The notes under the pieces were generated by a model, which saw nothing but the letters and a program-made list of their open reading frames with translations, searched no databases and was not told the DNA's origin. The translations under genes and the position numbers were made by a program. From IMG/VR virus record IMGVR_UViG_3300045988_087221: 64,000 bases of DNA. One strand, written 5' to 3'. The stretch is from a virus. Below are positions 5,750-46,433 of the stretch, piece after piece; position 1 is the first letter of the stretch, and every line of letters begins with the position of its first letter.

Positions 5750-5770
5750 TAAAAATCAATTTCTGTCATA

Positions 5771-5977: not shown

Positions 5978-5978
5978 A

Positions 5979-8162: not shown

Positions 8163-8521
8163 ACATTCTTTTTATTCATTAATTTTTTAGCATCTGAAGA
8201 TAATTTATCTGGATTATAGTTATCTAAATTTATTGTAAAATTAATGAGTTTAAAATTATCAGCGACTTTATCATTTATGAGTCTTTTAACTAACTCAATT
8301 AAAGTTTCTTCAGAATACTCACTACCCTTAGCACTTTTAACTATTGTAGTATTATCAATAGTATTAAACAATGCCCAGGGAATAGCTTCTCCACATGTAT
8401 AAGCTATGTAACCAACAGCATCGTTACCTTTATAAGGTATGACTATACCTGTAATTTCATTGTCAATAGCACCTAAATCAATAGCATCAGAGGTTTCACT
8501 TGGCAATATAATATCTTTCAT
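8150..8521 (-). CDS. hypothetical protein
   Basis: Track ORF, tightly packed with neighbours. No motif recognised. Confidence 0.5.
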   Translation of the reverse strand: MKDIILPSETSDAIDLGAIDNEITGIVIPYKGNDAVGYIAYTCGEAIPWALFNTIDNTTIVKSAKGSEYSEETLIELVKRLINDKVADNFKLINFTINLDNYNPDKLSSDAKKLMNKKNVWSL

Positions 8522-8526
8522 ACTAT

Positions 8527-16765: not shown

Positions 16766-16847
16766 ATATTATATAATTTTCAAAATTTAAGTAATCATAA
16801 TCTAATAAATTAATTGTTATCTAATATATTTAATTAACTCTATTTTA

Positions 16848-17411
16848 TTAGAGAGTATAACTCAGACCAGATAGGTCTGTAGATTCCTCTTCTATAGCAT
16901 CCAAGTTAGTTATATCAAGCTCATCCTCAATATTAACTAACTCTTTTGGAACCTCTTGTTCTTCAGGCATTTTGTCTCCTACAAGCCAATAAATACCCTC
17001 ATCTTCAGTTGGTTCCATTTTAAAGGTAGTACCATATCCTGCTAACTTCTTATTATTAGCACCTCCATATCTTACAGTATTCTTACCTGAAAGTAAATTA
17101 CCTCCCTTAGATTTAAAAGCAGCATCTGTTCCAATCTTTGGAAGCAGCTGTTTGCCCTTCTTGTCATACTTGATGTCTATACGACAATCTTCACAGACTT
17201 GTAATAAATCAACTGCTCCTTGGGTAAGCGTTAATTTAGTAGAATCAAGTGTTACAATAGGCTCAGGGTTTTCATCTTTCTTAGTAGAACTCTTTCTGGA
17301 AGAAGAAGAAGTTTTCTTAGCAGTGTCTACCTTAATCTCATCTTTACCAATAAAAGTGATTTCTCCTGTTGCTTCATCAACAGAATAGTGCATTACAATG
17401 TCCAGCTTCAT
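16848..17411 (-). CDS. hypothetical protein
   Basis: Track ORF with a Ser/Lys-rich linker and an acidic C-terminus. Confidence 0.5.
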   Translation of the reverse strand: MKLDIVMHYSVDEATGEITFIGKDEIKVDTAKKTSSSSRKSSTKKDENPEPIVTLDSTKLTLTQGAVDLLQVCEDCRIDIKYDKKGKQLLPKIGTDAAFKSKGGNLLSGKNTVRYGGANNKKLAGYGTTFKMEPTEDEGIYWLVGDKMPEEQEVPKELVNIEDELDITNLDAIEEESTDLSGLSYTL

Positions 17412-17448
17412 ATATTCAATAATTAGTTAATTAGTTAGTTAAATAGTC

Positions 17449-18144
17449 TTAATCTTCGTTTTCAAATGCATTAATAGTATCTATAACCAGTTTCATATCA
17501 GGCTCAATATACTTTTCGTCAAAACAGCCTGCCACACTTCTACAAGTATCATTACCATCTGTTCTAGTCTTAAAACGATAATGTACTTCTCCATCTACAT
17601 CATCCACAATTCTTTCTGAATAAATAATGTATGAAAACATTCCATCCAAATTAATTTGGTTAGTTAACATCTTACCAGTTGTCCAGAGACGATATTGTGG
17701 ATCCAAATCAGTTCCAAAATTTTCAGTATGTGAAATAACTACAATAGTTAAATCATCACGAAGAAGTTGACACTCTGCTAGCAAATCATAATAATTCTTT
17801 GCCATCAATGTAAACTTCTCATATCCCTTGGTAGTAGCATTCTCAAAGGTTTCATTAGATAACAGATAATTAATATCATCAAGAACTACTACCTTTATAT
17901 CTGGTCGAGAATCAGAAATCATATGCAATACATTCTCAATTTTAGTATAATTATTCTGAATATACCAATTGCCAATGAGCTTTTTATCTCTAATAGCTAC
18001 CTTAGGATACTTCTTACGAAATCCTGGAATCTGAAGCTGCTTATTAGTACAACTTATAATAAATGTAGACTCTGGGTCAAGAGTGCGTAGACTAGTTGAT
18101 TTTCCACTATTTGATAAACCTGCCAAGCAAATAAGATTACTCAT
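17449..18144 (-). CDS. RecA-like AAA ATPase (AAA_24/Sak4-like)
   Basis: Walker A in GLSNSGKST and Walker B in KVVVLDD. Size of about 230 aa, directly downstream of the helicase. Confidence 0.6.
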   Translation of the reverse strand: MSNLICLAGLSNSGKSTSLRTLDPESTFIISCTNKQLQIPGFRKKYPKVAIRDKKLIGNWYIQNNYTKIENVLHMISDSRPDIKVVVLDDINYLLSNETFENATTKGYEKFTLMAKNYYDLLAECQLLRDDLTIVVISHTENFGTDLDPQYRLWTTGKMLTNQINLDGMFSYIIYSERIVDDVDGEVHYRFKTRTDGNDTCRSVAGCFDEKYIEPDMKLVIDTINAFENED

Positions 18145-25212: not shown

Positions 25213-25992
25213 TTAATTATCAAGTCCTACTAATGTTGATGAGTTACCTGTAACCTTAGGAAGATGTCCGTCCCAAGCTTCAATCCACTGCTTCTTAACA
25301 AGCAATGGTGTAAGAGAAGCATTTACAATGGCATTAGCTTTAGCTTCTGCTTCAGCTACTACAATCTTCTTCTTTGCCTCTGCTTCAGCTACTTGTACTT
25401 CATTAGCTGCTTTCTGTGCTAACTGAATAGCTCTATTCTTAGCATCTACAGCTTCTACAATAGTCTTAGGATATTGCAAACCACTAGTAAACTGGTCAAG
25501 TACAAATCCTTCCTTGTCAAGAAGTTTAGAAAGACGCTTCTCAATCGCTTGTTCTACAGCTTCACGATTTGACACAATCTGGTCTGTAGTAAATTTATTA
25601 ATCTCAATGCGGCAAGCATCCTTTACATACTTAAATACAGGACCATTAATCACATCAGTTAATTCTTTGCGATACTTACGAAATACTTTTGGAGCAGCAC
25701 CATCCTTAACTTTAAGATTGACATTTGGATCAACTTTAAATTCGGAACCGTCCTTAGCATTAATTGTAAATGGTTCATAATCAATAGTCTGAACGTAAGT
25801 AGGATACTCATATACTTCTTGAGTAGCTGGATTATAGAATACTCGTCCAGTTACCATAGATACATCATCTACACCTCTTTCAGAGCCATAGAGATTAACT
25901 AAGATACCTTCACAACCAGCATCAATACGTTCACAACTAGTAAAGCTTAATGATAACATTAAAGCACTCGCAAATAAAAAGACTTTTCTCAT
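25213..25992 (-). CDS. SPFH/band-7 (prohibitin/stomatin-like) lipoprotein
   Basis: Lipoprotein signal MRKVFLFASALMLSLSFTSC. SPFH-like core, then an Ala/Glu/Lys coiled coil (AANEVQVAEAEAKKKIVVAEAEAKANAI) typical of the family. Confidence 0.75.
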   Translation of the reverse strand: MRKVFLFASALMLSLSFTSCERIDAGCEGILVNLYGSERGVDDVSMVTGRVFYNPATQEVYEYPTYVQTIDYEPFTINAKDGSEFKVDPNVNLKVKDGAAPKVFRKYRKELTDVINGPVFKYVKDACRIEINKFTTDQIVSNREAVEQAIEKRLSKLLDKEGFVLDQFTSGLQYPKTIVEAVDAKNRAIQLAQKAANEVQVAEAEAKKKIVVAEAEAKANAIVNASLTPLLVKKQWIEAWDGHLPKVTGNSSTLVGLDN

Positions 25993-30223: not shown

Positions 30224-30296
30224 ATACTACAAGTAGGTTGACTTTGTAATAGGATCTTATTCTCTACCATTACTAGTTCTCTACTTTATTAATTAG

Positions 30297-30380
30297 TTGT
30301 CTAGGAGAGATTCGAACTCCCGAAGCTAAATAGCAGCTGATTTACAGTCAGCCGTGTTTGACCACTTCACATACTAGACA
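30297..30380 (-). tRNA. tRNA-Tyr (anticodon GTA), long variable arm
   Basis: Hand fold: acceptor TGTCTAG/CTAGACA, anticodon arm GCTGA-CTGTAAA-TCAGC, long variable arm, T-arm GGGAG-TTCGAAT-CTCTC. Confidence 0.75.
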
Positions 30381-30398
30381 ATAAATTTTTTTATAAGT

Positions 30399-30467
30399 TG
30401 CGGATGTTCGATTCGAACGACTACTCTAGGTTATGAGCCTAGTATGTTACCATTACACCACATCCGC
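30399..30467 (-). tRNA. tRNA-Met (anticodon CAT), short (69 nt) with 4-position T-stem
   Basis: Acceptor GCGGATG/CATCCGC, anticodon arm CTAGG-CTCATAA-CCTAG, T-arm GTCG-TTCGAAT-CGAA (three Watson-Crick pairs plus G.A). Confidence 0.6.
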
Positions 30468-30646
30468 GATATATTGTTTTAAAGAATTTTCGGCGGAGCA
30501 AAGTCTTTAAGTACCATCTATCGATGACTTTTTATAAGGTTCTCTTAACCTTCGACATGACTATATTATGAGTAACGTTACCTCTCTTTTCAATGCCCCT
30601 TGAGTTAAAATACTTCTTTGGTACATGCTCCATATTAAATATAAAG

Positions 30647-30718
30647 AGCTTCAAGTAGGATTTGAACCCACGACCTGCACTTTACAAGAGTGCTGCACTA
30701 CCACTGTGCTATTGAAGC
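30647..30718 (-). tRNA. tRNA-Thr (anticodon TGT)
   Basis: Canonical hand fold: GCTTCAA-TA-GCAC-AGTGGTA-GTGC-A-GCACT-CTTGTAA-AGTGC-AGGTC-GTGGG-TTCAAAT-CCTAC-TTGAAGC-T. Confidence 0.85.
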
Positions 30719-30863
30719 TAAAATAAAGACGAATATGGCATTAGACGGGTGAACTATCATGACCATATTCTAATAATACATTGAGCTATCAGGCATACTC
30801 GTGGATCACCACCGCTACCTCTAACAACCGCCTAGTTAAATGCTAGGTCCTCTCCATTATTTG

Positions 30864-30936
30864 TGGACCGTGTCGGACTTGAACCGCAATGATTGCTTGC
30901 AAAGCAATAGTGTTAGCCAGTTACACTACACAGCCC
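30864..30936 (-). tRNA. tRNA-Ala (anticodon TGC), 4-position T-stem
   Basis: Anticodon arm ATTGC-TTTGCAA-GCAAT, T-arm GCGG-TTCAAGT-CCGA, acceptor GGCTGTG/CACGGTC (or a register shifted by 1 nt that gives G3:U70). Confidence 0.6.
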
Positions 30937-30952
30937 ATTTCTAGTATTTTTG

Positions 30953-31029
30953 CGGAATATAAGGGACTCGAACCCTTAGTTTTACTAGAGTGACAGTCTA
31001 GTTCCCTTACCAACAGGGCTTAATACTCC
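30953..31029 (-). tRNA. tRNA-Asp (anticodon GTC)
   Basis: Acceptor GGAGTAT/ATATTCC plus G73, anticodon arm CTAGA-CTGTCAC-TCTAG, T-arm AAGGG-TTCGAGT-CCCTT. Confidence 0.75.
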
Positions 31030-31320
31030 AGGCGCCTCTTGTGTACACATTTCTTTTCGAGAAGGTAATGAACCTTAGAAATAAGAGGCATATATTTAAA
31101 TTTACTCTTCCAACATCAGTAAGTACCCATTTGGCACTTACTAGTAGAAATCTAATTAGATTACTGTAAAAGGCAATACTCGATAATCTCTAACATCATA
31201 CCAAGCTGCTACAGTTTTCATTCCTTTCCACCATGATTTGATAATTCTTTTCATACAGTTTAAAATTTAATTGTTAATTAAATAATCTAATTGTATAGAA
31301 GGAAGAAGAAGTAAACATCG

Positions 31321-31392
31321 TGCAGAAAACCGGATTCGAACCGACAAATCCTGCTTGGAAGGCAGGCATGTTACCATTAACACCATTTCTGC
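31321..31392 (-). tRNA. tRNA-Gly (anticodon TCC)
   Basis: Acceptor GCAGAAA/TTTCTGC, anticodon arm CCTGC-CTTCCAA-GCAGG, T-arm GTCGG-TTCGAAT-CCGGT. Confidence 0.85.
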
Positions 31393-31682: not shown

Positions 31683-32015
31683 TCATAATTTAATCTTGTT
31701 AATAAATTCATTATATTTATCAATAAATTCTTGCTCTGTAATTATATCGCCTCTATTAGCCAAAGTTAAAGATTCTTCGCAATATGAAATAGAACCAAAT
31801 TTGTTAGATTCTCTCAAGTGTAATTCTAGAACAGTACAGTTACATTCATTAACCGAAATGATTTTATACCAATACATGTCTTCACCATAATCACAATATC
31901 TATATCTATTTTTGGATAATTCAGCCTTCAATATTGTATCTTGTATCTCACTTTGTTTAACTAATAGGTCAGCTATCTGTTTACTTATATCTTTTAAAGT
32001 TTCAGAATTAGTCAT
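31683..32015 (-). CDS. hypothetical coiled-coil protein
   Basis: The track start is GTG. The ATG (MTNSETLKDISKQ...) at 32013-32015 overlaps the upstream stop by 8 nt. Confidence 0.5.
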   Translation of the reverse strand: MTNSETLKDISKQIADLLVKQSEIQDTILKAELSKNRYRYCDYGEDMYWYKIISVNECNCTVLELHLRESNKFGSISYCEESLTLANRGDIITEQEFIDKYNEFINKIKL

Positions 32016-32229
32016 TAAATAACTTTTCAATAGATTTCTTATAATCTGAATTCTTATGTACGAAATACAGAGCACATATAGTATTTATTAGAGGGCATAA
32101 TACTATAAATAAAGTTAGCAAATTTATTTCTACTTTCTTAAGGTCCATGCGATAACTAATGTAGAAGCAACTTGCAAGATATATTACTATGCAAATAAGT
32201 CCTATAATAAGTAACTCTCCAAAACTCAT
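32008..32229 (-). CDS. small integral membrane protein
   Basis: Two TM helices (LLIIGLICIVIYLASCFYI, LLTLFIVLCPLINTICALYFV). Confidence 0.45.
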   Translation of the reverse strand: MSFGELLIIGLICIVIYLASCFYISYRMDLKKVEINLLTLFIVLCPLINTICALYFVHKNSDYKKSIEKLFND

Positions 32230-33377
32230 AATTCTTTAATATCAGAATCTTCAGACTTTCCTAGATATATATCATTTATAATACAATTACTTGTACGTAA
32301 TTGTTCTATAAAACGTATTATACCGATAATTCTTGGAGATTTATCTTGATAATCACATATAGTAGGAATGTACTTAGTCTTAAGGCAATCCCAATGAGTT
32401 ATGACAATGTTAAACTTACAATGATATGTCTCACTATAATTATCTAAACAATGTCTTTCTACAGCTCTTTTAAACAAAGGATAGTCAAAAGGACCTGTTT
32501 TAAACTCTCCTTGTGGTCCATCGTTAGTATTTGATGGTTCTTCTAGAGTAAAATACATTCCTAAGTCCATAGAATAAGGATTGTATCCATTTCCATGTCT
32601 AGTTAAATATGGACGCATAACTAAGTATACTTCTGCATTTTCTAGACACTTCTCTGGGATTCCATTTAATCCTACTTTACTAGGAGTACAGTGAGGCATA
32701 AATCCTCTTTCCATATCTAGAAGAAGACCTTGTGAACCCTCCCAAATAACAGTATCAACCTCATCAGGATAATAAGTTCCGATTATAAAAGTCTCAGGAT
32801 GTTCTTTAATAAAGGTACAAGCCTCTTTAAAAAGATCATCTAGTTTAGTGTCCCGTTCTAGATTATGATAATCCCTTACAGTCTGTAAAGCTACATCTGC
32901 ATATTCATCTGTATAAGGACACATACGAGCACTATAAGTTACATTATCTTTGTTTCTTTTAAAACAAGCATGTATACCTTTACCACAAGTTCCATTATAC
33001 TTCACTCGTCCATCCATAGAGTCAGCTAATACATCATAAGGTGTAATAACTCTACAGTTAGGATTTATATATAACTTAGGAACTTCAATACCCTCACTAA
33101 CTAAGACTTTATATTCATTATAAATACATATTGGGTCAATGAATACTTCCTTATATAAGCAAGTTGGTACTCCTAGCAAAACACCGCTTCCCCAAGAAGA
33201 ACATACGTGTGATTTACCTTTATAAACCACACGATGACCGGCTTGTGGACCTCCACTAAATCTGATGACAACAGGTTTGTAACTATTCATACATAGCCAT
33301 TGTACTACATTACCCTTACCCTCATCACCAAATAGAGATCCAAGTACTATTTGATTACGAATTTGTTTGCTGTCCAT
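32226..33377 (-). CDS. adenylosuccinate synthetase (PurA)-like protein
   Basis: GDEGKGN P-loop, SGGPQAGHRV, GTCGKGI and WEGSQGLLLDMERG...TPS...TRHGNG follow the PurA motif order. The track start is GTG; the ATG (MDSKQIRN) is at 33375-33377. Confidence 0.75.
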   Translation of the reverse strand: MDSKQIRNQIVLGSLFGDEGKGNVVQWLCMNSYKPVVIRFSGGPQAGHRVVYKGKSHVCSSWGSGVLLGVPTCLYKEVFIDPICIYNEYKVLVSEGIEVPKLYINPNCRVITPYDVLADSMDGRVKYNGTCGKGIHACFKRNKDNVTYSARMCPYTDEYADVALQTVRDYHNLERDTKLDDLFKEACTFIKEHPETFIIGTYYPDEVDTVIWEGSQGLLLDMERGFMPHCTPSKVGLNGIPEKCLENAEVYLVMRPYLTRHGNGYNPYSMDLGMYFTLEEPSNTNDGPQGEFKTGPFDYPLFKRAVERHCLDNYSETYHCKFNIVITHWDCLKTKYIPTICDYQDKSPRIIGIIRFIEQLRTSNCIINDIYLGKSEDSDIKEL

Positions 33378-34167
33378 AACTGTTAGAAACAATACGAGCA
33401 ATAGATTCACCTACATGCTCTTTATCTGAAATAATAAGATTGTCTCCTACATAAGGCTTCCAACTATCTGAAACCCTTTCTACACTATAATAACCATCAT
33501 GTTCTACATGAATGTGATAAATATCCCACTTCTCAGCGCACTCTCTGTAAATGAAAGAGGTAGCTAAATCTTCACTACACTCATCACCTATATAATGAGT
33601 TACTGCTTCTTTAGGAAGAGTTTTATGAATTGGCTCATCACTAATTGTGATTAAACAGCCTTTAATACCTCTTTTCTCCAGAGCATCGGTCTTAATATGA
33701 TTAGCAGCGAAGTACCAACACATATGAGGATCTTCTCCTCCATTGCCACCTCCTTTACCTTCAAGGTCAACTTTACGGAGCCATTTCTCCATAAGTTCAT
33801 CACTTGATTCAAACTGTCCTACTTGTAAAGGAGCCTCTTCATAACAGCCCTCTACATCGCCAAATGCCATAAAACAGATTTGAGGATTATCAATACCTGC
33901 CTTCATAATACTAGCTACACAATCTGGTAAAGTATTATCAATAAGATATTTAGGCACTTTACCCATAGAACCAGTCTCATCCAAAGCAATAATGATAGGG
34001 AATGATTCTGGGTGTTCTTCAGAATCACAAGACTCTCTGAAATTAATGTTAAGAGGATTCATTTCAGGGTCTAACTTTTTCTTGCTGAATGTCTTTTCAA
34101 TAGACTGAGATCTGTAACTATGACTTCTAGCTACAGCATCATTATACGAATAACTACCACATCCCAT
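33355..34167 (-). CDS. von Willebrand factor A (vWA) domain protein
   Basis: MIDAS motif in IIIALDETGSMG, followed by a typical alternating beta/alpha pattern. 270 aa. Confidence 0.7.
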   Translation of the reverse strand: MGCGSYSYNDAVARSHSYRSQSIEKTFSKKKLDPEMNPLNINFRESCDSEEHPESFPIIIALDETGSMGKVPKYLIDNTLPDCVASIMKAGIDNPQICFMAFGDVEGCYEEAPLQVGQFESSDELMEKWLRKVDLEGKGGGNGGEDPHMCWYFAANHIKTDALEKRGIKGCLITISDEPIHKTLPKEAVTHYIGDECSEDLATSFIYRECAEKWDIYHIHVEHDGYYSVERVSDSWKPYVGDNLIISDKEHVGESIARIVSNSYGQQTNS

Positions 34168-35228
34168 TACGCTTCCTCCTTTGCTTGTGATTTAATATTA
34201 CTAGCTAATGCACTAACTAAAGCATTTACATTATCTGTAAGTGCATCTACCTTAGCATTAATTTTATCTAATTCCGATGGTTCTGAAGTTTCAGTAGCAG
34301 GTTTGCTTGCTGCACCAAACATATTACCAAACATATTACCACCTCCCATAAGCTGACTCATCATCATCATAGTCATAAAATCAGAACTATTATTATCAGC
34401 GAGAGCCATAAGCATCATAGGATTGAATCCCTTACCTGCATTATTAAATAGTCCACCACCATTCATAGCAGACATCATAAGCAGATTCTTAACATCAAAT
34501 TTATTTCCACTCATATAAGCAAGAGCAAGTGGATTAAATCCATTAGAAGAATCAAAGTTAAATGGATTGACAATAACTCTAAATGTTGCAGAACCCATCA
34601 ACTCATCTTCAATAGCAATCTTATTGTTAATATTGCCATTAAAGTTCATAATCTTGATAGAACCATCTTCTGCTTTAGTCTTAACTACACCATAAGACCT
34701 GCCTGATTTTACAATATCTCCGATTACAATTTGATCAGAGTTCTTGCTAATATTGTAAATACAAGGCATAGGGAAAGTCATCTTATACTTCTTGAGTTTA
34801 CCTGCCGGAGAAACGCCTACGTATGCACCGTCACTATTCTTAAAACAAAGAACACCATCAGTGATACTGATTCTAGCACTCTCCTCAGCCTGTGGCATAA
34901 ACTCATTATACATATCTTTAGTTAAATCTCCAAAGACATTATCAACATTCATTTTTCCAAATTGTTCCATACTTGAAATATTTTTACTTATAGTATTAAT
35001 TTGTTTACCATTAATCTCAGAAATTGTTACCGTCTCATAACTTTCTTGTTCTCTAGAACTTGCATAAGTCCAGACAACTTGAAACTTACTGTCATAACCT
35101 ACAAGTTGTACTAAATCACCTCTTTTAAGCCCAGGACACTCATTAGCTACTATATAAGGTACAGTAGTTTCTGAATTCATTCTAGTAGGACTTAATTTAG
35201 TATTTGTAAATATACCTCTAATTACCAT
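34167..35228 (-). CDS. hypothetical protein with Met/Gly/Asn-rich low-complexity region and C-terminal coiled coil
   Basis: Track ORF. Contains ...LLMMSAMNGGGLFNNAGKGFNPMMLMALADNNSSDFMTMMMMSQLMGGGNMFGNMFG..., then KINAKVDALTDNVNALVSALASNI. Confidence 0.55.
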   Translation of the reverse strand: MVIRGIFTNTKLSPTRMNSETTVPYIVANECPGLKRGDLVQLVGYDSKFQVVWTYASSREQESYETVTISEINGKQINTISKNISSMEQFGKMNVDNVFGDLTKDMYNEFMPQAEESARISITDGVLCFKNSDGAYVGVSPAGKLKKYKMTFPMPCIYNISKNSDQIVIGDIVKSGRSYGVVKTKAEDGSIKIMNFNGNINNKIAIEDELMGSATFRVIVNPFNFDSSNGFNPLALAYMSGNKFDVKNLLMMSAMNGGGLFNNAGKGFNPMMLMALADNNSSDFMTMMMMSQLMGGGNMFGNMFGAASKPATETSEPSELDKINAKVDALTDNVNALVSALASNIKSQAKEEA

Positions 35229-35230
35229 AA

Positions 35231-35458
35231 TTATAAACTATTAAGTATGCTTTTATATCTATCTAAATATTTAGAACCTAATGCAGACATTATTTTATAA
35301 AATCCTGACCTAAATCCATCATCAGAACTAACTAATTGTTTTATGCTCTTTATATAATAATCAGGTATATCAGATCTACATTCATGTTGCATTAAGTTCC
35401 TAGCTAGTGCCATTTTATTTAATATTTCACCAGCTGCCTTAGCTTTATCTTCAGTCAA
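35231..35458 (-). CDS. hypothetical small protein
   Basis: The track start is TTG. An alternative ATG (MALARNLMQ...) is at 35411-35413. Confidence 0.4.
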   Translation of the reverse strand: MTEDKAKAAGEILNKMALARNLMQHECRSDIPDYYIKSIKQLVSSDDGFRSGFYKIMSALGSKYLDRYKSILNSL

Positions 35459-35668
35459 GTTTAAATATAACTAAATATACTAATAAAAAGACCAAAGCTA
35501 CTCCTAGAATATCTATAAACATTCAAATAGCTCTAATAGATTTAAATGGATAACGTTTCTGATCATAGCTACTAATGAAGTTTTCTTTTACTTTAGCTTC
35601 ATTAATACCTGTAAGTCTAATGGTTTGTTCTTTGTTTTTTAAAGAATCAAAATAAGTTACTTCAAATT

Positions 35669-36076
35669 TCATATAAAAGATTCTCTATTATTAAATTTAT
35701 TTTGAGCATCAAGTACTCCTTCTTTATCTGTAATATCTACAATAAGTCCTATTTGTCGTAACCAAACATCAAATGGACCACTGTACCCTAGGTCACCAAC
35801 CCAACCTCCTTTACAAAATACTATTTTCTTCCAAACAAAAATAGCACATAATATCCCATCAACTTCACATAAATGTTTGCCTTCTGGAATATCTAGGAAT
35901 GTTGGAGCTAAACCTACTCCCTCTCGATAATATTTAGATATTCGAGTATGAAATACATCATCCTGCATAACTACTGCATCTGTCTCATAATTAGTAGACA
36001 ATTTACCATGCAAATAAAAATCAGGCTGATAAATCCAATTCTCGTTTCGACTACTTAATGGCTTAAATTTAATCAT
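35669..36076 (-). CDS. hypothetical protein
   Basis: Track ORF with ATG start. Confidence 0.5.
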   Translation of the reverse strand: MIKFKPLSSRNENWIYQPDFYLHGKLSTNYETDAVVMQDDVFHTRISKYYREGVGLAPTFLDIPEGKHLCEVDGILCAIFVWKKIVFCKGGWVGDLGYSGPFDVWLRQIGLIVDITDKEGVLDAQNKFNNRESFI

Positions 36077-36177
36077 TTATGTTTCTTTTTCCATCGAAAC
36101 CATAAACCTAATACAATACCAATTATAAACCAAACTAGTATTGTAATAATAAAGGTTCCAATATTAAGTACAATCAT
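36073..36177 (-). CDS. hypothetical TM micro-protein (34 aa)
   Basis: Own translation MIVLNIGTFIITILVWFIIGIVLGLWFRWKKKHK. ATGA overlap with the next gene. Confidence 0.3.
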   Translation of the reverse strand: MIVLNIGTFIITILVWFIIGIVLGLWFRWKKKHK

Positions 36178-36191
36178 AATCTAATATTTAT

Positions 36192-36222
36192 AGAGAGGGC
36201 TAGCTATTAACCAGTCCTCTCT
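36192..36222 (-). terminator. hairpin after the ATPase gene (weak terminator candidate)
   Basis: AGAGAGG...CCTCTCT, a 7-bp stem 7 nt after the stop of 36229..38688, with no clear U-tract. Confidence 0.35.
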
Positions 36223-36228
36223 CGTTAA

Positions 36229-38688
36229 TTACTTGAATAACTTTTTAGCCCAATACAGGAGTTCTCTACAAACTGGTACAATTGCAGTAAGACCTACAAT
36301 CTCCAACCATGTTTCAATACTTAATGGCTCTGTTCTGAACACATCGCCACCAAATTGAACTATCAAAATTTGACCAATAAATATAACCAAACATATTCCA
36401 ATAAATGCAGGATTACTTAACAAACCATTAAAGATACTTCTGTCTTGTCCAAATACTCTTGCATTAAACAAGTTCCAGAATTGTAACATAACAAAAATAG
36501 TGAAGAACTCTGTAAGGCTATATGTATTACTAATCAGCAAATATAATAATATGCCGAAATACAAAATACCTACACCAAAGATTTCATACCACATTCTCTT
36601 TGTGATAATAAATGCCTTAGGATCACGTGGCTGTTCAGACATTACTGCTTCATTAGCTGGTTCTGTAGCCAATGCTAAAGCAGCAAAAGTATCCATAATT
36701 AAGTTAACCCATAGCATTTGGATAACAGTGAATGGTAAGTCTACCCCAATAAATGGACCTACACAAGCAATACCAATAGCTACAACATTTACAGTAAGCT
36801 GGAAAAGAATAAAGTGCTGAATATTCTTATACAAGCTTCTTCCCCACTTAACTCCTAAGATAACAGAAGGGAATGAATTATCAAGAAGAATAACATCAGC
36901 TGCATTCTTAGCAATATCAGTACCATTATTCATAGCTACACCTACTTCAGCTTGGTTAAGAGCAGCTGAATCATTAGTTCCATCACCAGTTACAGCTACT
37001 ACTTCTCCCATTCTCTGGAATCTCTTAACAAGTGTCTGCTTGTCTTCAGGTTTAGTTCTGGCAAATACATCTACTTTACGTAAATTAGTATCTGTCTGAG
37101 CTTCGACTTCCTTACCAAGCATTGTGTTAGGAGTCTGAGAGATATTAGCTTGAGCAGCGATAGAAGCAGCTGTTTCAGGATTATCACCTGTCACAATCTT
37201 AACTTTAATTCCTGCGTTTCTAGCAGCCTGAATTGCATCAGGTACATTACTTCTTACTGGGTCTTCGATAGCTACGTAGCCATCCCATATGAAGTCTGAG
37301 AGGGTATTTATATCAGAACCAATCTTGTGTGCAAAAGCAATACATCTTCTGCCTTTAGATTGTTGTTCTGCAAAATTAGGTATGTTCTCATTAGAGCAGA
37401 AATTCATTACTATTTCTGGAGCTCCCTTAATATAAGTAACTGCTCCATCACTAGTAATCATATATTTATTCTTAGAATTAAATTCTACTCTACCTGTTAT
37501 ATGAGTTTTATTTCTTTTATCGGTGATGTCAACTGACTTTTGTACATATTGCAGACAAGCACCCTCTGTAGGATTTCCTACTACTTCTCCTGCAGGACTA
37601 AGATTAGCAGTAGAATTAAGTACAATATTATTTATGACAGCATTTCTATCTGTAAAGTCCTGGAATACTACTTTCATTTTATTCTCTGTAAGAGTTCCTG
37701 TCTTATCAGTAAGAATAAGAGTTGTAGCACCGAGAGTTTCACAAGCATGCATCTTTCTAATAAGGTTATTAGCTTTAGCCATTCTCTTCATAGAATAAGC
37801 AAGAGCAAGAGTTACCGCCATAGGTAAACCTTCTGGTACTGCTACTACAATAAGAGCTACTGCAATCATTAAGAATTGTAAGCAATCATTTACAATATCA
37901 ATAGTATCTTTGCCTACATATCCTTGCTCTATAAATATATAACGTATAGCAAGAGACACAATAAGGATACCTGCAGCTGTGAATGCTATCTTATTAATTA
38001 AGCTAGCTAATCCATTAAGCTGTTTATTAAGAGGTGTTTCTACATCAGTAATAGAAGATGCTTCTCTAGCAGTCTTACCTACTTCTGTTTCATCTCCTAC
38101 TGCAAATACTTCACCTACACAAGTACCCTCAGCTACAATAGTGCTTTTATAAATTCTATTTGTAGGATAGGTAGCAGTCTCTGATTCAAAATTAGTTTTA
38201 GTTACAGGATTTGTTTCTCCAGTTAAAGAAGCTTCACTTACCTTCAAATTGCTATATTCTCTAACAATAATATCGGCAGGAACTTCTTCACCAGCTTCAA
38301 GTATTACAATATCCCCTACAACTAAGTCTTTACGAGCTACTTGAATTACTCCATTATCTCGTCTTACCTTAACTAGAGTATCATCACTACTAGTTAAAAG
38401 AAGGTCAAACTTTTTAGCTGCTGACCAGGTATTCCAAAAACCAATACCTACAGCTAAAGCAATGGCTACAATAATACCAATAGGCTCTGTAAATTCACCC
38501 TTTACAAATCCTAAGGCAATAGATACTGCAGCTGCAATAAGTAATATTACAATAAGTGGGTCTTTAAATCCATCAAGTAACATTACATACCAAGCATCTC
38601 TCTTCGGAGGTGTCAATACATTAATGCCATGTCTAGCACGTGAATCTTCTACTTCTGTTAAGCTAAGACCGTAATTTATATCTGTCAT
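36229..38688 (-). CDS. P-type ATPase, type II (Ca2+-transporting family)
   Basis: LTGETNPV (TGE), DKTGTLT, VPEGLPMAVT (PEGLP), VTGDNPETA and VTGDGTNDSAALNQAEVG, about 10 TM segments, and an N-terminal cation-ATPase-N-like start. Confidence 0.92.
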   Translation of the reverse strand: MTDINYGLSLTEVEDSRARHGINVLTPPKRDAWYVMLLDGFKDPLIVILLIAAAVSIALGFVKGEFTEPIGIIVAIALAVGIGFWNTWSAAKKFDLLLTSSDDTLVKVRRDNGVIQVARKDLVVGDIVILEAGEEVPADIIVREYSNLKVSEASLTGETNPVTKTNFESETATYPTNRIYKSTIVAEGTCVGEVFAVGDETEVGKTAREASSITDVETPLNKQLNGLASLINKIAFTAAGILIVSLAIRYIFIEQGYVGKDTIDIVNDCLQFLMIAVALIVVAVPEGLPMAVTLALAYSMKRMAKANNLIRKMHACETLGATTLILTDKTGTLTENKMKVVFQDFTDRNAVINNIVLNSTANLSPAGEVVGNPTEGACLQYVQKSVDITDKRNKTHITGRVEFNSKNKYMITSDGAVTYIKGAPEIVMNFCSNENIPNFAEQQSKGRRCIAFAHKIGSDINTLSDFIWDGYVAIEDPVRSNVPDAIQAARNAGIKVKIVTGDNPETAASIAAQANISQTPNTMLGKEVEAQTDTNLRKVDVFARTKPEDKQTLVKRFQRMGEVVAVTGDGTNDSAALNQAEVGVAMNNGTDIAKNAADVILLDNSFPSVILGVKWGRSLYKNIQHFILFQLTVNVVAIGIACVGPFIGVDLPFTVIQMLWVNLIMDTFAALALATEPANEAVMSEQPRDPKAFIITKRMWYEIFGVGILYFGILLYLLISNTYSLTEFFTIFVMLQFWNLFNARVFGQDRSIFNGLLSNPAFIGICLVIFIGQILIVQFGGDVFRTEPLSIETWLEIVGLTAIVPVCRELLYWAKKLFK

Positions 38689-38709
38689 TTTTTCTGTTAT
38701 TATAATTAA

Positions 38710-39336
38710 TTAAAGAAATGAAATTGTTGGACGCTTCATAGCATCAATTGAAGTCCAACCTCCGAACTCACCAACTGCCTTAAAGCGCCATTCACCATCC
38801 TTTTTATAGGCAACACCAAGGATAACTGCCTGCTTATCAGAAATCTTAGTACCTTCCTTACCGTCTTCAAGATTAAACTTAGCTAAGACATTTACAGGAG
38901 TATTAGTGTTTCTCTGTACTCTATCACCTGTATAAATACGAAGACCCATATAAGGAATCTCACCAAATGTCTGGTGTGTAAAGTTATTGAGAGTAAATGC
39001 AATATACTCAACACGTGGGTCAAGCTCATTTAAGCGTACCTCAATAGTCTCATTATCAAGACCATCATTACCATTTGTATCACCCGAACGATCATCACCA
39101 CTATGACGAATACCTGGAGCACTTAAATTGTAATAAGCTACTTCGCCAATACAATTCTTATTAGCATCATACAGAAGAACAGTAGAATCCAAATCTACCT
39201 TCTCGATAGAACCGCCAATGCCAAATAAACCCTTACGTCTGATAGCTCCCCAGTTTGAACCAAAGAATAATTTACTCAAACCATTGTTAGACTCTTTAGA
39301 CAGATTGATTCTGCCACCTTTACTTAAATTAATCAT
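38710..39336 (-). CDS. TerD-family protein
   Basis: MINLSKGGRINLSK start, SGDDRSGDTNGNDGLDNETIEVRL Ca-binding-type loop, about 200 aa. Paralog of 39448..40050. Confidence 0.85.
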   Translation of the reverse strand: MINLSKGGRINLSKESNNGLSKLFFGSNWGAIRRKGLFGIGGSIEKVDLDSTVLLYDANKNCIGEVAYYNLSAPGIRHSGDDRSGDTNGNDGLDNETIEVRLNELDPRVEYIAFTLNNFTHQTFGEIPYMGLRIYTGDRVQRNTNTPVNVLAKFNLEDGKEGTKISDKQAVILGVAYKKDGEWRFKAVGEFGGWTSIDAMKRPTISFL

Positions 39337-39371
39337 AAAGCTTTATTAAATAATTGTGAATTACTAATTAA

Positions 39372-39405
39372 CTAAAAATGGGAGTACCTAATTAAAGATA
39401 CTCCC
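39372..39405 (-). terminator. rho-independent terminator between the two TerD genes
   Basis: Minus strand reads GGGAGTA-TCTTTAATTAGG-TACTCCC followed by ATTTTTAG. Confidence 0.6.
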
Positions 39406-39447
39406 TTATAGAATCAAGAATTAAAACCGAATTAATTTATCAATTAA

Positions 39448-40050
39448 TTAAATAGCTGGGGCATCTGGCAAGATGAGTCCATAGTTACGAAGAATATCAC
39501 GATAGATAACATTCTGATAACTACCCTTGTCTTCTCCAAGAGCCTTGAACTTCCAATCACCATTGTGGCGATAAAGTTGGCAGAATACAACACAGCGAGA
39601 CATACTTGCATCCTCAGTAAGATCAAACTTAGCCAAAGGAGTAGTGTTACCTTTAGCATACAAGTTGCAATAAGCATTGTTAACCATACCAAAGTTCTGC
39701 TGACGATTCTTAGCATCGTGAATATTAACTAAGATGATAATTTTCTGGACATCTGCAGGAACCTTAGTAGTGTCTACTACAATTGTCTCATCATCTCCAG
39801 CACCAGCACCTGTACGGTTATCACCTGAATGCTTAATAGCATCTTTCCAATTTGGGTTATTGTAGAAAATGAAACCATTGTCAGGATCTACTGCTTTATC
39901 CTGAGCATTCAAAGGAATAGTAGCTACATCCAAGTCAAATTCTACACCTGCCTGGGATGCTACATCCCAACCCAAACCAATTGAAAACTCTGTTACACCA
40001 TTTGCTTCTTTAGCGAGGTTGATGTTACCTCCTTTACTTAATTGAATCAT
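39448..40050 (-). CDS. TerD-family protein
   Basis: MIQLSKGGNINLAK start and SGDNRTGAGAGDDETIVVDT loop. Canonical TerD length. Confidence 0.88.
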   Translation of the reverse strand: MIQLSKGGNINLAKEANGVTEFSIGLGWDVASQAGVEFDLDVATIPLNAQDKAVDPDNGFIFYNNPNWKDAIKHSGDNRTGAGAGDDETIVVDTTKVPADVQKIIILVNIHDAKNRQQNFGMVNNAYCNLYAKGNTTPLAKFDLTEDASMSRCVVFCQLYRHNGDWKFKALGEDKGSYQNVIYRDILRNYGLILPDAPAI

Positions 40051-40064: not shown

Positions 40065-40256
40065 TTAATATTTACCGCAAAATTTACGGCTAATTATAGT
40101 CATAACTTTATCATAAGTTAACTTTTTAGCTTCCTTCTCAGAATAACCTTCTATAATATAAGAATCTACTATTTTCTCAATTGCAGCATTCATTTCAGAG
40201 AATAAGTATTTTTGTTCTTTAGTTAACTTATCATCATATAAATAAGATTTATTCAT
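40065..40256 (-). CDS. hypothetical small protein
   Basis: Track ORF of 63 aa. Confidence 0.4.
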   Translation of the reverse strand: MNKSYLYDDKLTKEQKYLFSEMNAAIEKIVDSYIIEGYSEKEAKKLTYDKVMTIISRKFCGKY

Positions 40257-40515
40257 CTACTTGTAAATCAGCCTGAGTACTTTCTATATAATCTTTTACA
40301 TCTAAGTCTGTAATAAGATTAACTAAGTCTCCAACAGTCTTTAGATTCTGAACTTTATCATCTGTGATAGGATAACCAAACTCCTGTTCACACTCAGTAA
40401 TAATCTCTACTAAATCAAGACTGTCTGCATACAAATCATCGAAAGTATCTTCACTCTTGGCATCTACACCTAGTTCTTCATTAATTATATTAATGACCCT
40501 TGTTTCTATACTCAT
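40249..40515 (-). CDS. acyl carrier protein
   Basis: DLYADSLDLVEIITECEQEFG carries the DSLD phosphopantetheine-attachment motif at the expected position of an 88-aa acidic four-helix protein. Confidence 0.85.
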   Translation of the reverse strand: MSIETRVINIINEELGVDAKSEDTFDDLYADSLDLVEIITECEQEFGYPITDDKVQNLKTVGDLVNLITDLDVKDYIESTQADLQVDE

Positions 40516-43326: not shown

Positions 43327-44475
43327 TTAATATATCTGATTAAGCTTACCTGAAGCACTTGAAGTGTATCCAGATTTAATTATATAAATATTAAAATTAC
43401 ATAAACTGGTTACAACGTAACGCTTTTGAGGGTCTATGTAGAATATAGTACGATCGTCAAACTCTTCTCCTATTTTGAGATACTTTATCTCCTTATTAGA
43501 TATAATAGTATCTGTGCGCATATAAGTGCCCTCCAGGACTTTCTTAGCTTCCAATTCTCTCTCAGAATATTCTTTAATAGGCTTTCCTGCAGCTTGGCAC
43601 ACTATTTCTCGACTTTCGACTATCTTATCAAAGAGTTGTCCATCAATATGAGGACTATTCCTTAATAATCCATCTCTTAATTCTAGAGATTCTACAAAAT
43701 AGGTAAAATTAGAGAACTCAAGATTAAAGTCTCTACGGATTGCCTCAATTTTGTCTTTACCATGAATATTAACTTCCTGAGCAAGAGCTTTTACTAGATC
43801 AACAGTAATTATCTGCATCTGTCTAATTAAGTCTAGTACTGGCTCTATTGCATCTTTGTCAATTAAAATATCATTAAGTAATTCAAGTGTAGTTTCTTCA
43901 GGTAGATTACCAAAAGAACGTACATATCTAATACGTGATGGGCGACCTAACAAATTATTATTAATTTCCAACTCATTAGTGGTAAGTAGAAATATTTTAC
44001 GATATTGTGAATTGTGAACACCGTCCATAAAAGAGAGAACTGATGAAGATTCCCTAAATTCTTTTTCGTATTCATCAAAGAAGAAGATACAGTCAAAGTT
44101 AATTTGAGTAGCTAAGAATTTAAGCATATCATTTACTTCTTTACAGGATTTAACAATAATAACTGGAAGTCCGATACGATTACAAAGCTCTTCTGCAGTA
44201 ACTGTTTTACCTGTTCCCTTGATACCATTAAATAATACTCCTAAATTACCTGTAGTATTATTGTAAGTTTTTACAAAATGATCAATAAACTCACTATTAA
44301 TACCATACAATTTGTAATTAAATACAAAAGAATCTCCAAGTCTATTTAAATAATAACCTGTCATTGATTCTTTAACTTCATAAATTCCTTTAGGCAATCC
44401 TTCAGGATGTGCTTTTGTTGTGGCACTACCCTTCACAAAAGTATTACCATCTTGAATCCAAATGTTTTGTTCCAT
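43327..44475 (-). CDS. AAA+ ATPase
   Basis: Walker A in FNGIKGTGKTVTAEEL and Walker B in CIFFFDEYEK. Confidence 0.7.
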   Translation of the reverse strand: MEQNIWIQDGNTFVKGSATTKAHPEGLPKGIYEVKESMTGYYLNRLGDSFVFNYKLYGINSEFIDHFVKTYNNTTGNLGVLFNGIKGTGKTVTAEELCNRIGLPVIIVKSCKEVNDMLKFLATQINFDCIFFFDEYEKEFRESSSVLSFMDGVHNSQYRKIFLLTTNELEINNNLLGRPSRIRYVRSFGNLPEETTLELLNDILIDKDAIEPVLDLIRQMQIITVDLVKALAQEVNIHGKDKIEAIRRDFNLEFSNFTYFVESLELRDGLLRNSPHIDGQLFDKIVESREIVCQAAGKPIKEYSERELEAKKVLEGTYMRTDTIISNKEIKYLKIGEEFDDRTIFYIDPQKRYVVTSLCNFNIYIIKSGYTSSASGKLNQIY

Positions 44476-46097: not shown

Positions 46098-46433
46098 GGT
46101 GGAGCATTGGAGAGTCGAACTCCAGTCACTCCGATTTGCATCAAAACATTCTTACAGCATAGGTTTTAAAGACTATCCTTGTCTGCTAGGGTTGACAAGA
46201 TTAACATATTGTCAACTTCCACCACTCTGTTCCTAAAGTATACAGAGAACTTACAAAAGAAATGGAAAATAGTGCACCTTTCTGTTCCTAAGCAAGTGCT
46301 GCTCGGCTTCTCAGGCTGCGATAGCGTAAGAAGCGGAAGTGTTATTTACTTCGCCAATTAATTTTTTACTTGTCTATCCAAGTTGTCTTGCTGTGTTCCT
46401 TATCTCCTCGAAGTTCAAAACCACGAATGCCCC
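46098..46433 (-). ncRNA. ssrA: tmRNA (SsrA), one-piece, predicted tag GEVNNTSASYAIAA
   Basis: 5' GGGGCATTCGTGGTTTTGAAC pairs with the 3' ...ATGCTCC-A-CC (G3:U70). T-arm GGAG-TTCGACT-CTCC. An internal tag frame ends YAIAA-TGA. Confidence 0.8.
46311..46355 (-). other. tmRNA tag reading frame (resume codon GGC to TGA)
   Basis: GGC GAA GTA AAT AAC ACT TCC GCT TCT TAC GCT ATC GCA GCC TGA, read on the minus strand. Confidence 0.65.

Follow-up and report, generated by a model that had tools for sequence, protein, structure and literature searches.

Two adjacent, separately inherited modules of a large phage: a TerD pair joined to a PMCA-type Ca2+ pump and a vWA–PurA-like cassette

The stretch of DNA considered here, called the window, is 64,000 nucleotides of IMG/VR virus record IMGVR_UViG_3300045988_087221. 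It comes from a phage of ~185 kb that probably has a Bacteroidales host. Between positions 32,226 and 40,050, the window carries a 7.8-kb block of accessory genes which an initial annotation, made from the sequence alone, had described as one Ter-like island. All the open reading frames (ORFs) named in that annotation are present on the minus strand where it placed them. However, comparison of ~220 related loci splits the block, and we propose that it consists of two adjacent, independently inherited accessory modules. Module 1 (36073–40050) encodes two TerD proteins, TerDb and TerDa, with a hairpin between their genes, followed by a PMCA-type Ca2+-ATPase and a membrane peptide of 34 residues; together these would form a Ca2+-handling unit. 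Module 2 (32226–35458) encodes a 75-residue protein, a Met-rich protein of 353 residues, a vWA/MIDAS protein and a PurA-like enzyme, the last two of which appear to be a two-gene cassette of many large phages. The viral relatives come from IMG/VR contigs, and the related loci are labeled L001 onwards where they need to be distinguished. The window's own family of ~185-kb phages has two branches, designated the close clade and the divergent (or sister) clade.

The unity of module 1 is apparent from its conservation. The pump was found in 50 IMG/VR contigs, mostly of 140–225 kb, with 60–100% protein identity. In 48 of these 50 loci, and at pump identities as low as 60%, the genes for TerDb, TerDa and the pump stand next to one another in an unchanged order, with TerDb always upstream; another locus is truncated where its contig ends. 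Counting that one, TerD is upstream of the pump in 49 of the 50 loci, and the sole exception is L039. Conserved synteny in related phages, which the initial annotation had suggested as a check on its island, therefore does exist for these three genes, and the TerD pair plus the Ca2+-type pump is a real, evolutionarily conserved unit. In 30 divergent loci, the interval between TerDa and the pump is 408–511 nt and encodes an acidic protein of 113–135 residues with a repeated ADGxIxxEE motif. Nine of 11 aligned members matched DUF533 (best 5e-6), and three of the 11 matched TerB (best 2e-7); single sequences fall below the Pfam gathering score, and PDB entry 2h5n is matched at E = 0.05. With moderate confidence, these profile matches make the insert TerB-like.

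A scan with a pump profile added 19 further viral loci, including more distant pumps, and TerD lies within 10 kb of the pump in nine of the 19; one of the nine, L133, is from the same phage family. In L151, TerD is matched ~1.5 kb upstream of the pump. L143 has the order TerD, TerD, membrane protein, pump, next to a tyrosine integrase of the Bacteroidetes type. Two large proteins of 1301 and 678 residues with no significant Pfam match are encoded ahead of that cluster (1892–7833). In L142, a contig of 306 kb, the order is TerD, TerD, a 114-residue protein, a fusion of an Endonuclease V-like protein with TerB, GroES, GroEL, two small ORFs and the pump. The fusion and the chaperonin genes (6414–7340, 7414–9376) thus stand between the TerD pair and the pump, and the TerB domain of the fusion scores 23.0 bits versus a cutoff of 24.4. 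L146 encodes three TerD proteins, two vWA proteins, a vWA protein with a TerY_C domain, a PP2C phosphatase, a Ser/Thr kinase, a 106-residue ORF and then the pump, with an integrase nearby. By its gene content, it is a canonical TerD/TerY-P system ending in this type of pump, located in an integrative element. Among chromosomal pump loci of Bacteroidales, the closest 80, which cover 1.2 Mb, all lack TerD, TerB-like and vWA-like genes within 8 kb of the pump. Since none of the 80 has TerD, the association of TerD with the pump is a trait of phages and mobile elements rather than of a housekeeping pump locus.

The vWA and PurA-like genes follow a distribution of their own. A profile scan recovered 72 viral vWA-like loci with 26–97% identity in contigs of up to 494 kb, and 65 of them have a PurA-like gene (29–99% identity) after the vWA-like gene in the same orientation. 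Of the other seven, two run into a contig end, one is a truncated match, three are the most distant matches, and one is a locus of none of these kinds. None of the vWA loci outside the window's own lineage has a TerD or pump gene within 6 kb. In two contigs of unrelated huge phages (403 and 282 kb), a 46–52% identical vWA-like gene abuts a PurA-like gene, and neither TerD nor pump is found within 8 kb. Cultured phages have the pair as well. A fold search of BFVD gave as the best viral match to the vWA model an uncharacterized 595-residue protein of Mycobacterium phage Sauce, and tblastn with the PurA-like protein found 201 mycobacteriophage records in addition to Rhizobium and Vibrio phages. 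In Bxz1, the unannotated gp248 is vWA-like (hhalign 99.9%, E = 9e-32) and is followed by gp249 and then by gp250, annotated as “PurA-like”. The cultured phages RHph_TM39 and phiKT1024 have the same pair.

Within the window's own family, the position of the pair also varies. In close relatives, it is downstream of the pump, and in L017 and L047 of the divergent clade, it is upstream of the TerD genes, starting ~6–8 kb before them. The stretch from the 353-residue protein to the PurA-like gene is partly or wholly deleted in L004, L007, L008 and L013, the last three having lost the vWA–PurA-like pair, while the TerD–pump unit is intact. A pair that switches sides or is lost argues against a single Ter-like island. 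Because many database relatives of the 353-residue protein are in-frame deletion fusions with the vWA or PurA-like protein, the cassette is evidently often eroded in natural populations, and in some hosts it is either dispensable or counter-selected. Database proteins P0047, P0012, P0013, P0054 and P0122 are examples of such chimeric cassette proteins, arising from frequent, often in-frame deletions.

The pump (36229–38688, minus strand; 819 residues) is predicted to be a Ca2+-translocating P-type ATPase of the PMCA (P2B) type. The initial annotation had recognized a P-type ATPase by the motifs TGE, DKTGTLT, PEGLP, TGDN and GDGTND, and this is upheld by Pfam, by NCBIfam and by alignment to the plant pump ACA8. 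Pfam assigns it the domains E1-E2_ATPase, Cation_ATPase_N, Cation_ATPase_C and Hydrolase. With 627.8 bits versus a cutoff of 507, it qualifies for TIGR01517, the PMCA-type equivalog of NCBIfam, and it falls below the cutoffs of the models for the PMR1 type (442 versus 798), the SERCA type (388 versus 703) and the Mg2+ type (233 versus 611); it also fails the H+ model. The best PDB matches are ACA8, PMCA1/2, SPCA1 and LMCA1, with which it shares the catalytic motifs and the ion-site residues, namely, the Glu of PEGLP in M4 and the Asn and Asp of the N..D motif in M6. The motifs TGE, DKTGTLT, VAVPEGLP, WVNLIMD, TGDN and GDGTND align to ACA8 (8qmp) and are invariant among eight phage pumps. Unlike ACA8, the window pump is virus-encoded, and its alignment begins only at about residue 148 of ACA8, so the plant N-terminal extension is absent. 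It is also ~60 residues shorter than its Bacteroidales relatives. These relatives, from Bacteroides, Phocaeicola, Mediterranea, Prevotellaceae and Alistipes, are the nearest cellular pumps at 43–47% identity; it took a profile of the phage pumps to find them, since peptide patterns from the single protein found none. No close relative was found in the GenBank phage collection. Because the nearest cellular pumps are from Bacteroidales but only 43–47% identical, a Bacteroidales host and an old acquisition of the pump are suggested. Both the ion specificity and the direction of transport are predictions from kinship with characterized pumps.

In two close relatives, L014 and L015 (11711–12837), the pump ORF is split inside the invariant TGDG|TNDS by an insert of 1127 nt that carries a 242-residue ORF. 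The split site corresponds to residues G570|T571 of the window pump, at about window position 36977. At gathering thresholds, Rfam finds no intron in L014 or in L002 (which has a different insert, described below); a sensitive scan gives a sub-threshold group I match in L014 only, to the full length of RF00028 (36.3 bits, E = 2.5e-7, below the gathering score of 50). This P-type ATPase gene of a phage has probably been invaded by a homing intron.

TerDb (39448–40050, minus strand; 200 residues) is the first gene product of module 1 and a canonical TerD-domain protein. It matches Pfam TerD (PF02342) at 7e-59 with 198.8 bits versus a gathering cutoff of 25.3, matches PDB entries 3ibz (4.5e-52) and 2kxt (2.7e-50), and shares ~50% identity with the TerD proteins of Klebsiella and Streptomyces whose structures are solved. 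The TerDb loop GDNRTGAGAGDDE aligns with the GDNRTGEGDGDDE loop of 2kxt and has the acidic pattern GDN(R)TG-x-G-x-GDDE. TerDa (38710–39336, minus strand; 208 residues), whose gene lies 21 nt upstream of the pump, is a divergent paralog that matches the same Pfam family at 2.6e-23 with 82.9 bits and 2kxt at 2.8e-12. Its loop GDDRSGDTNGNDGLDNE is an altered, expanded variant of the acidic Ca2+-binding loop. Within the loop, the residues taken to be Ca2+ ligands are those reportedly assigned by Pan et al. 2011, and Ca2+ binding by these particular TerDs is predicted by homology. TerDa orthologs hold the same position elsewhere, with 45–56% identity in the divergent clade and 50% in the 306-kb contig L142. 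Since both paralogs persist as distinct orthologs in the sister clade and in L142, they are not redundant.

Between the two TerD genes is a hairpin (39405–39380) followed by a T-run, the whole resembling a terminator or attenuator (39371–39405, minus strand). The stem has 10 bp with five GC pairs, a folding energy of −17.2 kcal/mol and z = −3.5, and it is the best terminator-like site of the region. It is kept in 20 loci of the close clade, and in L011, it has one compensatory change of T-A to C-G plus two one-sided changes that preserve pairing. The initial annotation was thus right about both the paralogs with acidic loops and the terminator-like element between them. In the divergent clade, the TerD genes are 0–12 nt apart, and the hairpin is absent. 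The initial annotation's suggestion that the terminator leaves the upstream TerD gene over-expressed is plausible and would apply to this clade only.

Following the pump, with its start 51 nt past the pump stop, is an ORF of 34 codons (36073–36177, minus strand; MIVLNIGTFIITILVWFIIGIVLGLWFRWKKKHK) that is too short for ordinary ORF cutoffs. It encodes a predicted single-pass membrane peptide and is a candidate for an accessory subunit of the pump; its stop overlaps the start of the next gene. Only conservative substitutions are seen in the close clade. L011 has a diverged 36-residue analog 8 nt past its pump, and in the divergent clade, a hydrophobic protein of 101 residues begins 2 nt past the pump stop. 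Micropeptide regulators exist for other P-type ATPases, and by analogy, it is a reasonable guess that this peptide is a regulatory subunit of the pump.

A Ca2+-handling role is the best reading of the TerD–TerD–pump unit on these homologies. The initial annotation had proposed a module that manipulates host Ca2+; that idea is supported for these three genes and not for the vWA and PurA-like proteins, which belong to the other module. In our model, the two TerD paralogs would bind cytoplasmic Ca2+ as a buffer or sensor. The pump, a minimal one with a single PMCA-like ion site and no ACA8-like extension, would be unregulated and export Ca2+ at the cost of ATP. Pumps of the PMCA/LMCA1 type export one Ca2+ per ATP. 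Together, the TerD proteins and the pump would hold down the free Ca2+ of the cytosol, or restore its level when the envelope has been damaged, through the long infection cycle of a large phage, and in this clade, the hairpin would probably make TerDb transcripts outnumber those of TerDa and the pump. According to Pan 2011 and Daigle 2015 (both cited in PMC8123226), TerD binds Ca2+ and has an effect on Ca2+ homeostasis. The purpose could be ion homeostasis in a long infection, damping of a Ca2+-linked host response or exclusion of other phages.

A more pointed view of that purpose is that the TerD–pump unit is a conflict system, either a Ter-type superinfection exclusion or a counter-defense, which would alter envelope or ion conditions to make competing phages fail or to blunt an abortive response that Ca2+ triggers in the host. 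Ter systems have been described as giving phage resistance, and Iyer et al. proposed that the Ter genes of jumbo phages act against superinfection (PMC7824862); TerY-P-like modules act in antiphage defense (PMC11090510). TerD–pump clusters in the integrase-bearing elements L143 and L146 would fit such a role, as would the SPFH and coiled-coil membrane proteins that flank TerD in some relatives. On the other side, the PADLOC defense models match no protein of the block, and Ca2+ is not known from direct evidence to trigger defense in Bacteroidales. We entertain this view only tentatively; it concerns purpose and is compatible with the mechanism of Ca2+ buffering and export.

The PurA-like enzyme of module 2 (32226–33377, minus strand) has 383 residues from its ATG, and an alternative GTG start at 33410 would add 11. 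The initial annotation had called it PurA-like, and membership in the PurA fold is borne out by Pfam Adenylsucc_synt (8e-35, covering only profile positions 1–319 of 416). It is not a true PurA by curated standards: it fails all five NCBIfam PurA equivalog cutoffs (best 104.2 bits versus 402; TIGR00184, 92.6 versus 395.6). We aligned 60 distinct members of the PurA-like family with E. coli PurA, using a sequence of the latter that agrees with the PDB alignment over residues 4–328. The P-loop GDxGKG is kept, and D13, K16 and H41 of E. coli PurA are kept in 60/60, Q224 in 59, T239 in 58 and the guanine-specific D333 in 57. Other positions are altered just as consistently: N38 is Q in all 60, V273 is H in 58, and T129 is C or V in 59. 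The aspartate-binding loop TTGRRRR, which contains T300, T301, R303 and R305, has become x-Q-G-x-(F/L)-(K/R): all 60 members lack R303, 58 have Q for T301, and 58 have F or L for R305. Compared with PurA, the enzyme has a shorter C-terminal domain. In PurA, T300, T301 and R305 take part in aspartate binding. R303 contacts both the aspartate substrate and the 2′-OH of IMP (PMC8342488). Judging from the alignment, the machinery for phosphotransfer and for activation of the 6-oxopurine looks intact, and the aspartate site looks rebuilt with hydrophobic residues. In L002 (~14544–15797) and L015 (~16490–17742), the PurA-like ORF is itself split, in its GDEGKG P-loop (at about window position 33290), by ~1.25 kb encoding a 188-residue protein with two LAGLIDADG-like motifs. 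It has no Rfam intron match, and it is probably a second mobile intron, a candidate alongside the one in the pump gene.

The most economical hypothesis is that the enzyme is a GTP-dependent ligase whose nucleophile is not aspartate and whose partner is the MIDAS protein. GTP would activate the 6-oxo group of a purine nucleotide, which would be handed to the non-aspartate nucleophile, and the vWA/MIDAS protein, as obligate partner, would present the substrate or regulate the enzyme. Going further, the pair may be a two-component system for modifying purine nucleotides, common to large phages of Bacteroidota, Actinomycetota and Pseudomonadota. In such a system, GTP would activate C6 of IMP, dIMP or a related nucleotide for attack by an amine other than aspartate, whose delivery or gating would fall to the MIDAS protein. 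An N6-substituted (deoxy)adenylate would result, or else AMP in a direct reaction, and it could serve as a precursor for DNA modification, a signal or an anti-defense molecule. We offer this extension as speculation.

A more conservative explanation is that the enzyme is an ordinary adenylosuccinate synthetase that boosts AMP or dATP for a genome of 31% GC and that its vWA neighbor is unrelated. The Pfam match favors it, as do the retained D13, K16, H41, Q224 and D333, the GenBank homologs labeled PurA or PurA-like, and a window rich in nucleotide-metabolism genes (NrdD, dUTPase and a weakly matched NrdG-like gene). What makes it unlikely is the failure at all five equivalog cutoffs, the loss of R303 in every member, the replacement of R305 and of T301 each in 58 of 60, and the near-obligate vWA adjacency, which argues for a functional pair since it is maintained across phages of at least three host phyla.

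The vWA protein (33355–34167, minus strand; 270 residues) belongs to a phage-specific family, phrog_2971 (4.6e-34), and has no match in sequence searches of Pfam, NCBIfam or PDB. The initial annotation had proposed a vWA domain with the MIDAS motif DETGS. That call is borne out by an AlphaFold2 model (pLDDT 91.6, pTM 0.92) and by conservation, not by Pfam VWA. In Foldseek searches, the model matches integrin I and beta-I domains, vWF A, BatA, the MIDAS domain of MDN1 and TFIIH p44 with E values of 5e-7 to 1e-4 and probability 1.0. DETGS, GGGN..E and LITIGDEP are invariant or nearly so in 27 homologs. Compared with the MIDAS consensus DxSxS...T...D, DETGS has Thr for the first Ser, and LITI(G/S)DEP is conserved. 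The protein is, according to the model, a vWA/MIDAS fold with a predicted metal site. The family has 1713 homologs, and none of the 120 listed has a Pfam domain.

These features bear on whether the whole block might after all be one integrated Ter-like system, with TerD proteins as Ca2+ sensors, a TerY-type vWA protein, the PurA-like enzyme making the nucleoside-like Ter metabolite and the pump as effector. The summary given in PMC7824862 has TerD and TerB occur in Ter systems along with vWA proteins and the biosynthesis of nucleotide derivatives. L146 shows a TerD/TerY-P system ending in this kind of pump, and the two modules remain within ~8 kb of each other in the 185-kb family. However, the initial annotation's suggestion of a TerY-type partner for TerD fails on the protein itself, which has neither Pfam VWA nor TerY_C. 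It also fails on its surroundings: the scanned proteins of the window include neither a PP2C nor a kinase, so the definition of TerY-P, a TerY-like vWA domain (Pfam VWA, often with TerY_C) whose gene accompanies those of a PP2C phosphatase and a Ser/Thr kinase (PMC11090510), does not apply. L146 serves as the positive control, having all three TerY-P features, and its vWA proteins look quite different. The window's vWA gene pairs instead with the PurA-like gene, in 65 of the 72 loci, away from TerD and pump outside its own lineage and in Bxz1, RHph_TM39 and phiKT1024, and the pair moves or disappears while the TerD–pump unit stays whole. We consider one integrated system improbable.

It is very unlikely that the enzyme is PurZ and the phage has a Z-genome containing 2-aminoadenine. 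The idea comes from the best PHROG match, phrog_1211, labeled ‘2-aminooxy adenylosuccinate synthetase’, a label repeated in some RefSeq mycobacteriophage records; PurZ is likewise a phage-encoded PurA homolog of the same PHROG. However, the Ser of PurZ (S23 in S-2L; PMC8342488) is Asp in 60/60 members, the NCBIfam PurZ model NF038379 gives 37.9 bits versus a cutoff of 300, no PurZ structure is among the PDB matches at E ≤ 0.001, and, unlike PurZ, which is an ATP user, the enzyme retains the guanine-specific Asp of a GTP site. The Z-cluster partners were not found either: nothing like DatZ, MazZ or DpoZ is among the ~50 window proteins scanned, the window being 64 kb of a genome of ~185 kb. We rejected the Z-genome reading on these grounds.

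We judge it probable that the block is two modules and that module 1 serves to buffer and export Ca2+, and several considerations temper this view. The loci of the 185-kb family share ancestry, so TerD upstream of the pump in 49 of 50 does not amount to 49 independent observations. TerD is not near the pump in L039 or in 10 of the 19 more distant viral loci, and where it is near in genomes of ~400 kb with several terD genes, its proximity could be partly due to chance. Sequence cannot separate Ca2+ from Mn2+ as the transported ion, SPCA-type pumps being among the top PDB matches, and the general role of TerD proteins is still debated. Neither clade of the family has the modules more than ~8 kb apart, and by analogy with Ter systems that combine TerD, vWA and nucleotide-metabolite enzymes, a looser functional link between them may exist. 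For module 2, the loss of the aspartate-binding arginines shows an altered site but not its present ligand.

The remaining genes of the block are small or without family matches. The 353-residue protein (34167–35228, minus strand), rich in Met, Gly and Asn in one tract, has a stop that overlaps the vWA start by 1 nt. It was correctly identified as a real ORF, being conserved in 59 database proteins. It has no family match. Its AlphaFold2 model (pLDDT 65) consists of a pair of small beta domains, a Met-rich tract that is poorly predicted and a helix at the C terminus, and no known fold matches it significantly. Homologs of 31–43% identity are found just upstream of the vWA gene in 12 further loci (L167–L177 and L190), including the 396-kb L173. 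Since its homologs precede vWA elsewhere, it is an optional first gene of the vWA–PurA-like cassette and not part of the pump module. L173 also has an AAA+ ATPase gene (3041–4165) two genes ahead of the 353-residue homolog, and the window has an AAA+ ATPase gene at 43327–44475 (minus strand), ~3 kb upstream of TerDb.

A 135-residue protein (35669–36076, minus strand) is translationally coupled to the micropeptide ORF; it is confined to the close clade, with ~40% identity in L011 and L012, and has no match in Pfam, PHROG or PADLOC. From the acyl carrier protein gene (40249–40515, minus strand) through this gene, the genes are tightly packed, the sole exception being the 111-nt spacer that holds the hairpin. 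A 210-nt gap, the largest intergenic gap of the block, then intervenes, after which the genes for the 75-residue, 353-residue, vWA, PurA-like and 73-residue proteins abut or overlap. Because the gap divides two tightly packed runs of genes, two transcription units fit this arrangement. The gap contains a match to the Bacteroides-type promoter pattern TTTG..TAnnTTTG (35493–35527, minus strand), ~35 nt upstream of the second packed unit. It is one of three in the window and the sole one of the region, and as the start of the second unit, it is suggestive only, since such matches are not enriched in the window (three versus 3.5 expected). Sigma-70-like sites are likewise at the chance level there (39 versus 43 expected). 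The 75-residue protein (35231–35458, minus strand), predicted to be helical, is encoded by the first gene of the second unit and has no Pfam or PHROG family match. L039 has a 37% identical homolog ~120 nt upstream of its TerD-less pump, and the gene recalls one of 77–91 residues that is co-transcribed upstream of the pump of Jug phages (PMC12880540). At the other end, the gene for a 73-residue hydrophobic protein (32008–32229, minus strand) overlaps the PurA-like stop by 4 nt. It follows the PurA-like gene in the close clade, L011 and L012 with 34–99% identity.

The block sits in the replication and nucleotide-metabolism arm of a large phage. The window's other genes include NrdD, exonucleases, a primase, a DnaB-type helicase, a second helicase, an SPFH protein, a dUTPase, a RusA-like resolvase and the NrdG-like gene. 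A script limited to minus-strand ORFs gave 119 genes, all on that strand by construction, and a six-frame list adds only minor, overlapping plus-strand ORFs. Since the whole 64-kb window is co-directional, the co-directionality of the block, on which the initial annotation remarked, is uninformative. The initial annotation had also called for a check on misassembly. Although the pump's nearest cellular relatives are Bacteroidales, there is next to no chance that the block is host DNA or a chimeric assembly: GC is uniform throughout the window at 0.27–0.36, and GC skew is negative everywhere; the same gene order recurs in more than 20 independent IMG/VR contigs of 100–225 kb; and the bacterial pumps are only 43–47% identical versus 60–100% among the phage copies.

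A few features of the surroundings are recorded here. The acyl carrier protein gene mentioned above is two genes upstream of TerDb and occurs in the close clade only; its product matches Pfam PP-binding at 3e-13 and scores slightly below the NCBIfam cutoffs for acyl carrier proteins. An SPFH/Band-7 membrane-scaffold gene (25213–25992, minus strand) lies ~6 kb downstream of the PurA-like gene. In several sister-clade genomes (L017, 7497–8306; L133, L043 and L045), a 36–38% identical SPFH gene is directly upstream of the TerD–TerD–TerB–pump series, and the SPFH gene may have a part in the same theme of membranes and ions. Just downstream of the block are six tRNA genes (Tyr, Met, Thr, Ala, Asp and Gly; 30296–31392, minus strand), and a tmRNA with the tag GEVNNTSASYAIAA is at 46098–46433 (minus strand). 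A tRNA-Ile(tat) gene and a tRNA-like gene with an odd two-base anticodon call are also present, with the region 62637–63027 (minus strand) listed as well. The Bxz1-type mycobacteriophages, which share the vWA–PurA-like cassette, also have many tRNAs and a tmRNA. In a k-mer search, the motif TTAGATTA(T) showed modest enrichment, occurring in ~8 intergenic regions of the window and often 36–120 nt upstream of a gene start. Examples on the minus strand are at 36184 (just before the micropeptide ORF), 31290, 26480, 22403, 16805, 12408 and 992. The motif may be a phage promoter or an element of the translation initiation region.

The initial annotation had known of no phage system with this gene combination. 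Parts of it have been published. Jug phages and other huge gut phages carry a Ca2+ P-type ATPase (PMC12880540; bioRxiv August 2025, Sci Adv February 2026), and the Jug-phage pumps, homologs of the window pump, are highly transcribed in human gut samples. Like the window pump, the Jug pump is full-length and similar to PMCA and LMCA1, and it occurs in large gut phages with presumed Bacteroidaceae hosts. It is closest to pumps of Bacteroides and Phocaeicola, and the same paper includes four smaller phages of 159–197 kb, the size class of the family studied here. In IMG/VR contigs of ~400 kb, we find pumps 48–49% identical to the window pump. The wiring differs: the Jug pump has the 77–91-residue protein, which lacks homologs, upstream and co-transcribed, whereas the window pump has two TerD genes upstream and the 34-residue peptide downstream. 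TerD genes are abundant in Jug phages but are described at other loci, and the main text of PMC12880540 does not mention adjacency of TerD and the pump. Ter genes in jumbo phages were reported in 2021 together with the superinfection-exclusion hypothesis (PMC7824862).

Compared with Ter systems, the window and its relatives share arrays of TerD paralogs, a context of membrane stress (SPFH) and, in the sister clade, a TerB-like protein. They differ in that the scanned proteins of the window include no TerC, TelA, TerY, PP2C, kinase or PRTase/HAD. They also differ in that the membrane effector is a P-type ATPase, which is unmentioned in PMC7824862 and PMC11090510, the two descriptions of Ter systems that this comparison covers. 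The vWA gene next to a gene for a partner of P-loop NTPase fold recalls the MoxR–vWA pairs that occur in jumbo phages (PMC7824862), as well as the BchI/BchD chelatase and CbbQ/CbbO; in those, the partner is an AAA+ ATPase, while here it is an enzyme of the PurA fold. No precedent for a vWA plus PurA-fold pair was found in the searched literature, which has only annotation labels for these genes.

In that literature, taken as exclusive of the 2012 Ter paper and the Jug supplements, the TerD–TerD–(TerB)–pump operon and its recurrence beside TerY-P appear to be undescribed. The vWA–PurA-like cassette, with or without the 353-residue protein, and its active-site signature also appear undescribed, and the 34-residue micropeptide ORF was not found there. 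What is already published for the cassette is the PurA-like annotation in Bxz1-type phages. The initial annotation's claim to novelty is partly outdated, as regards the phage pump and phage Ter genes.

The linkage of a TerD pair, joined in relatives by a TerB-like protein or a full TerY-P system, to a pump is the most direct genomic argument known to us for a role of Ter proteins in Ca2+ handling, and it would provide a minimal three-gene unit for testing the idea. At least in this family, the phage Ca2+ pump would not stand alone as an auxiliary gene but would be part of a buffer-and-pump module with a candidate micropeptide subunit. New biochemistry is most likely to be found in the PurA-like cassette. 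It spans metagenomic phages of up to ~500 kb and ~200 sequenced mycobacteriophages under no labels other than “PurA-like” and “hypothetical protein”, and the PurA-like subfamily should be tractable in Bxz1-type phages. The last phage relative of PurA whose chemistry was solved, PurZ, revealed a new pathway to a DNA base, and the change in the active site of the PurA-like subfamily is equally clear. If the vWA–PurA-like pair does modify purine nucleotides, it would add to PurA and PurZ a third branch of function within the PurA fold.

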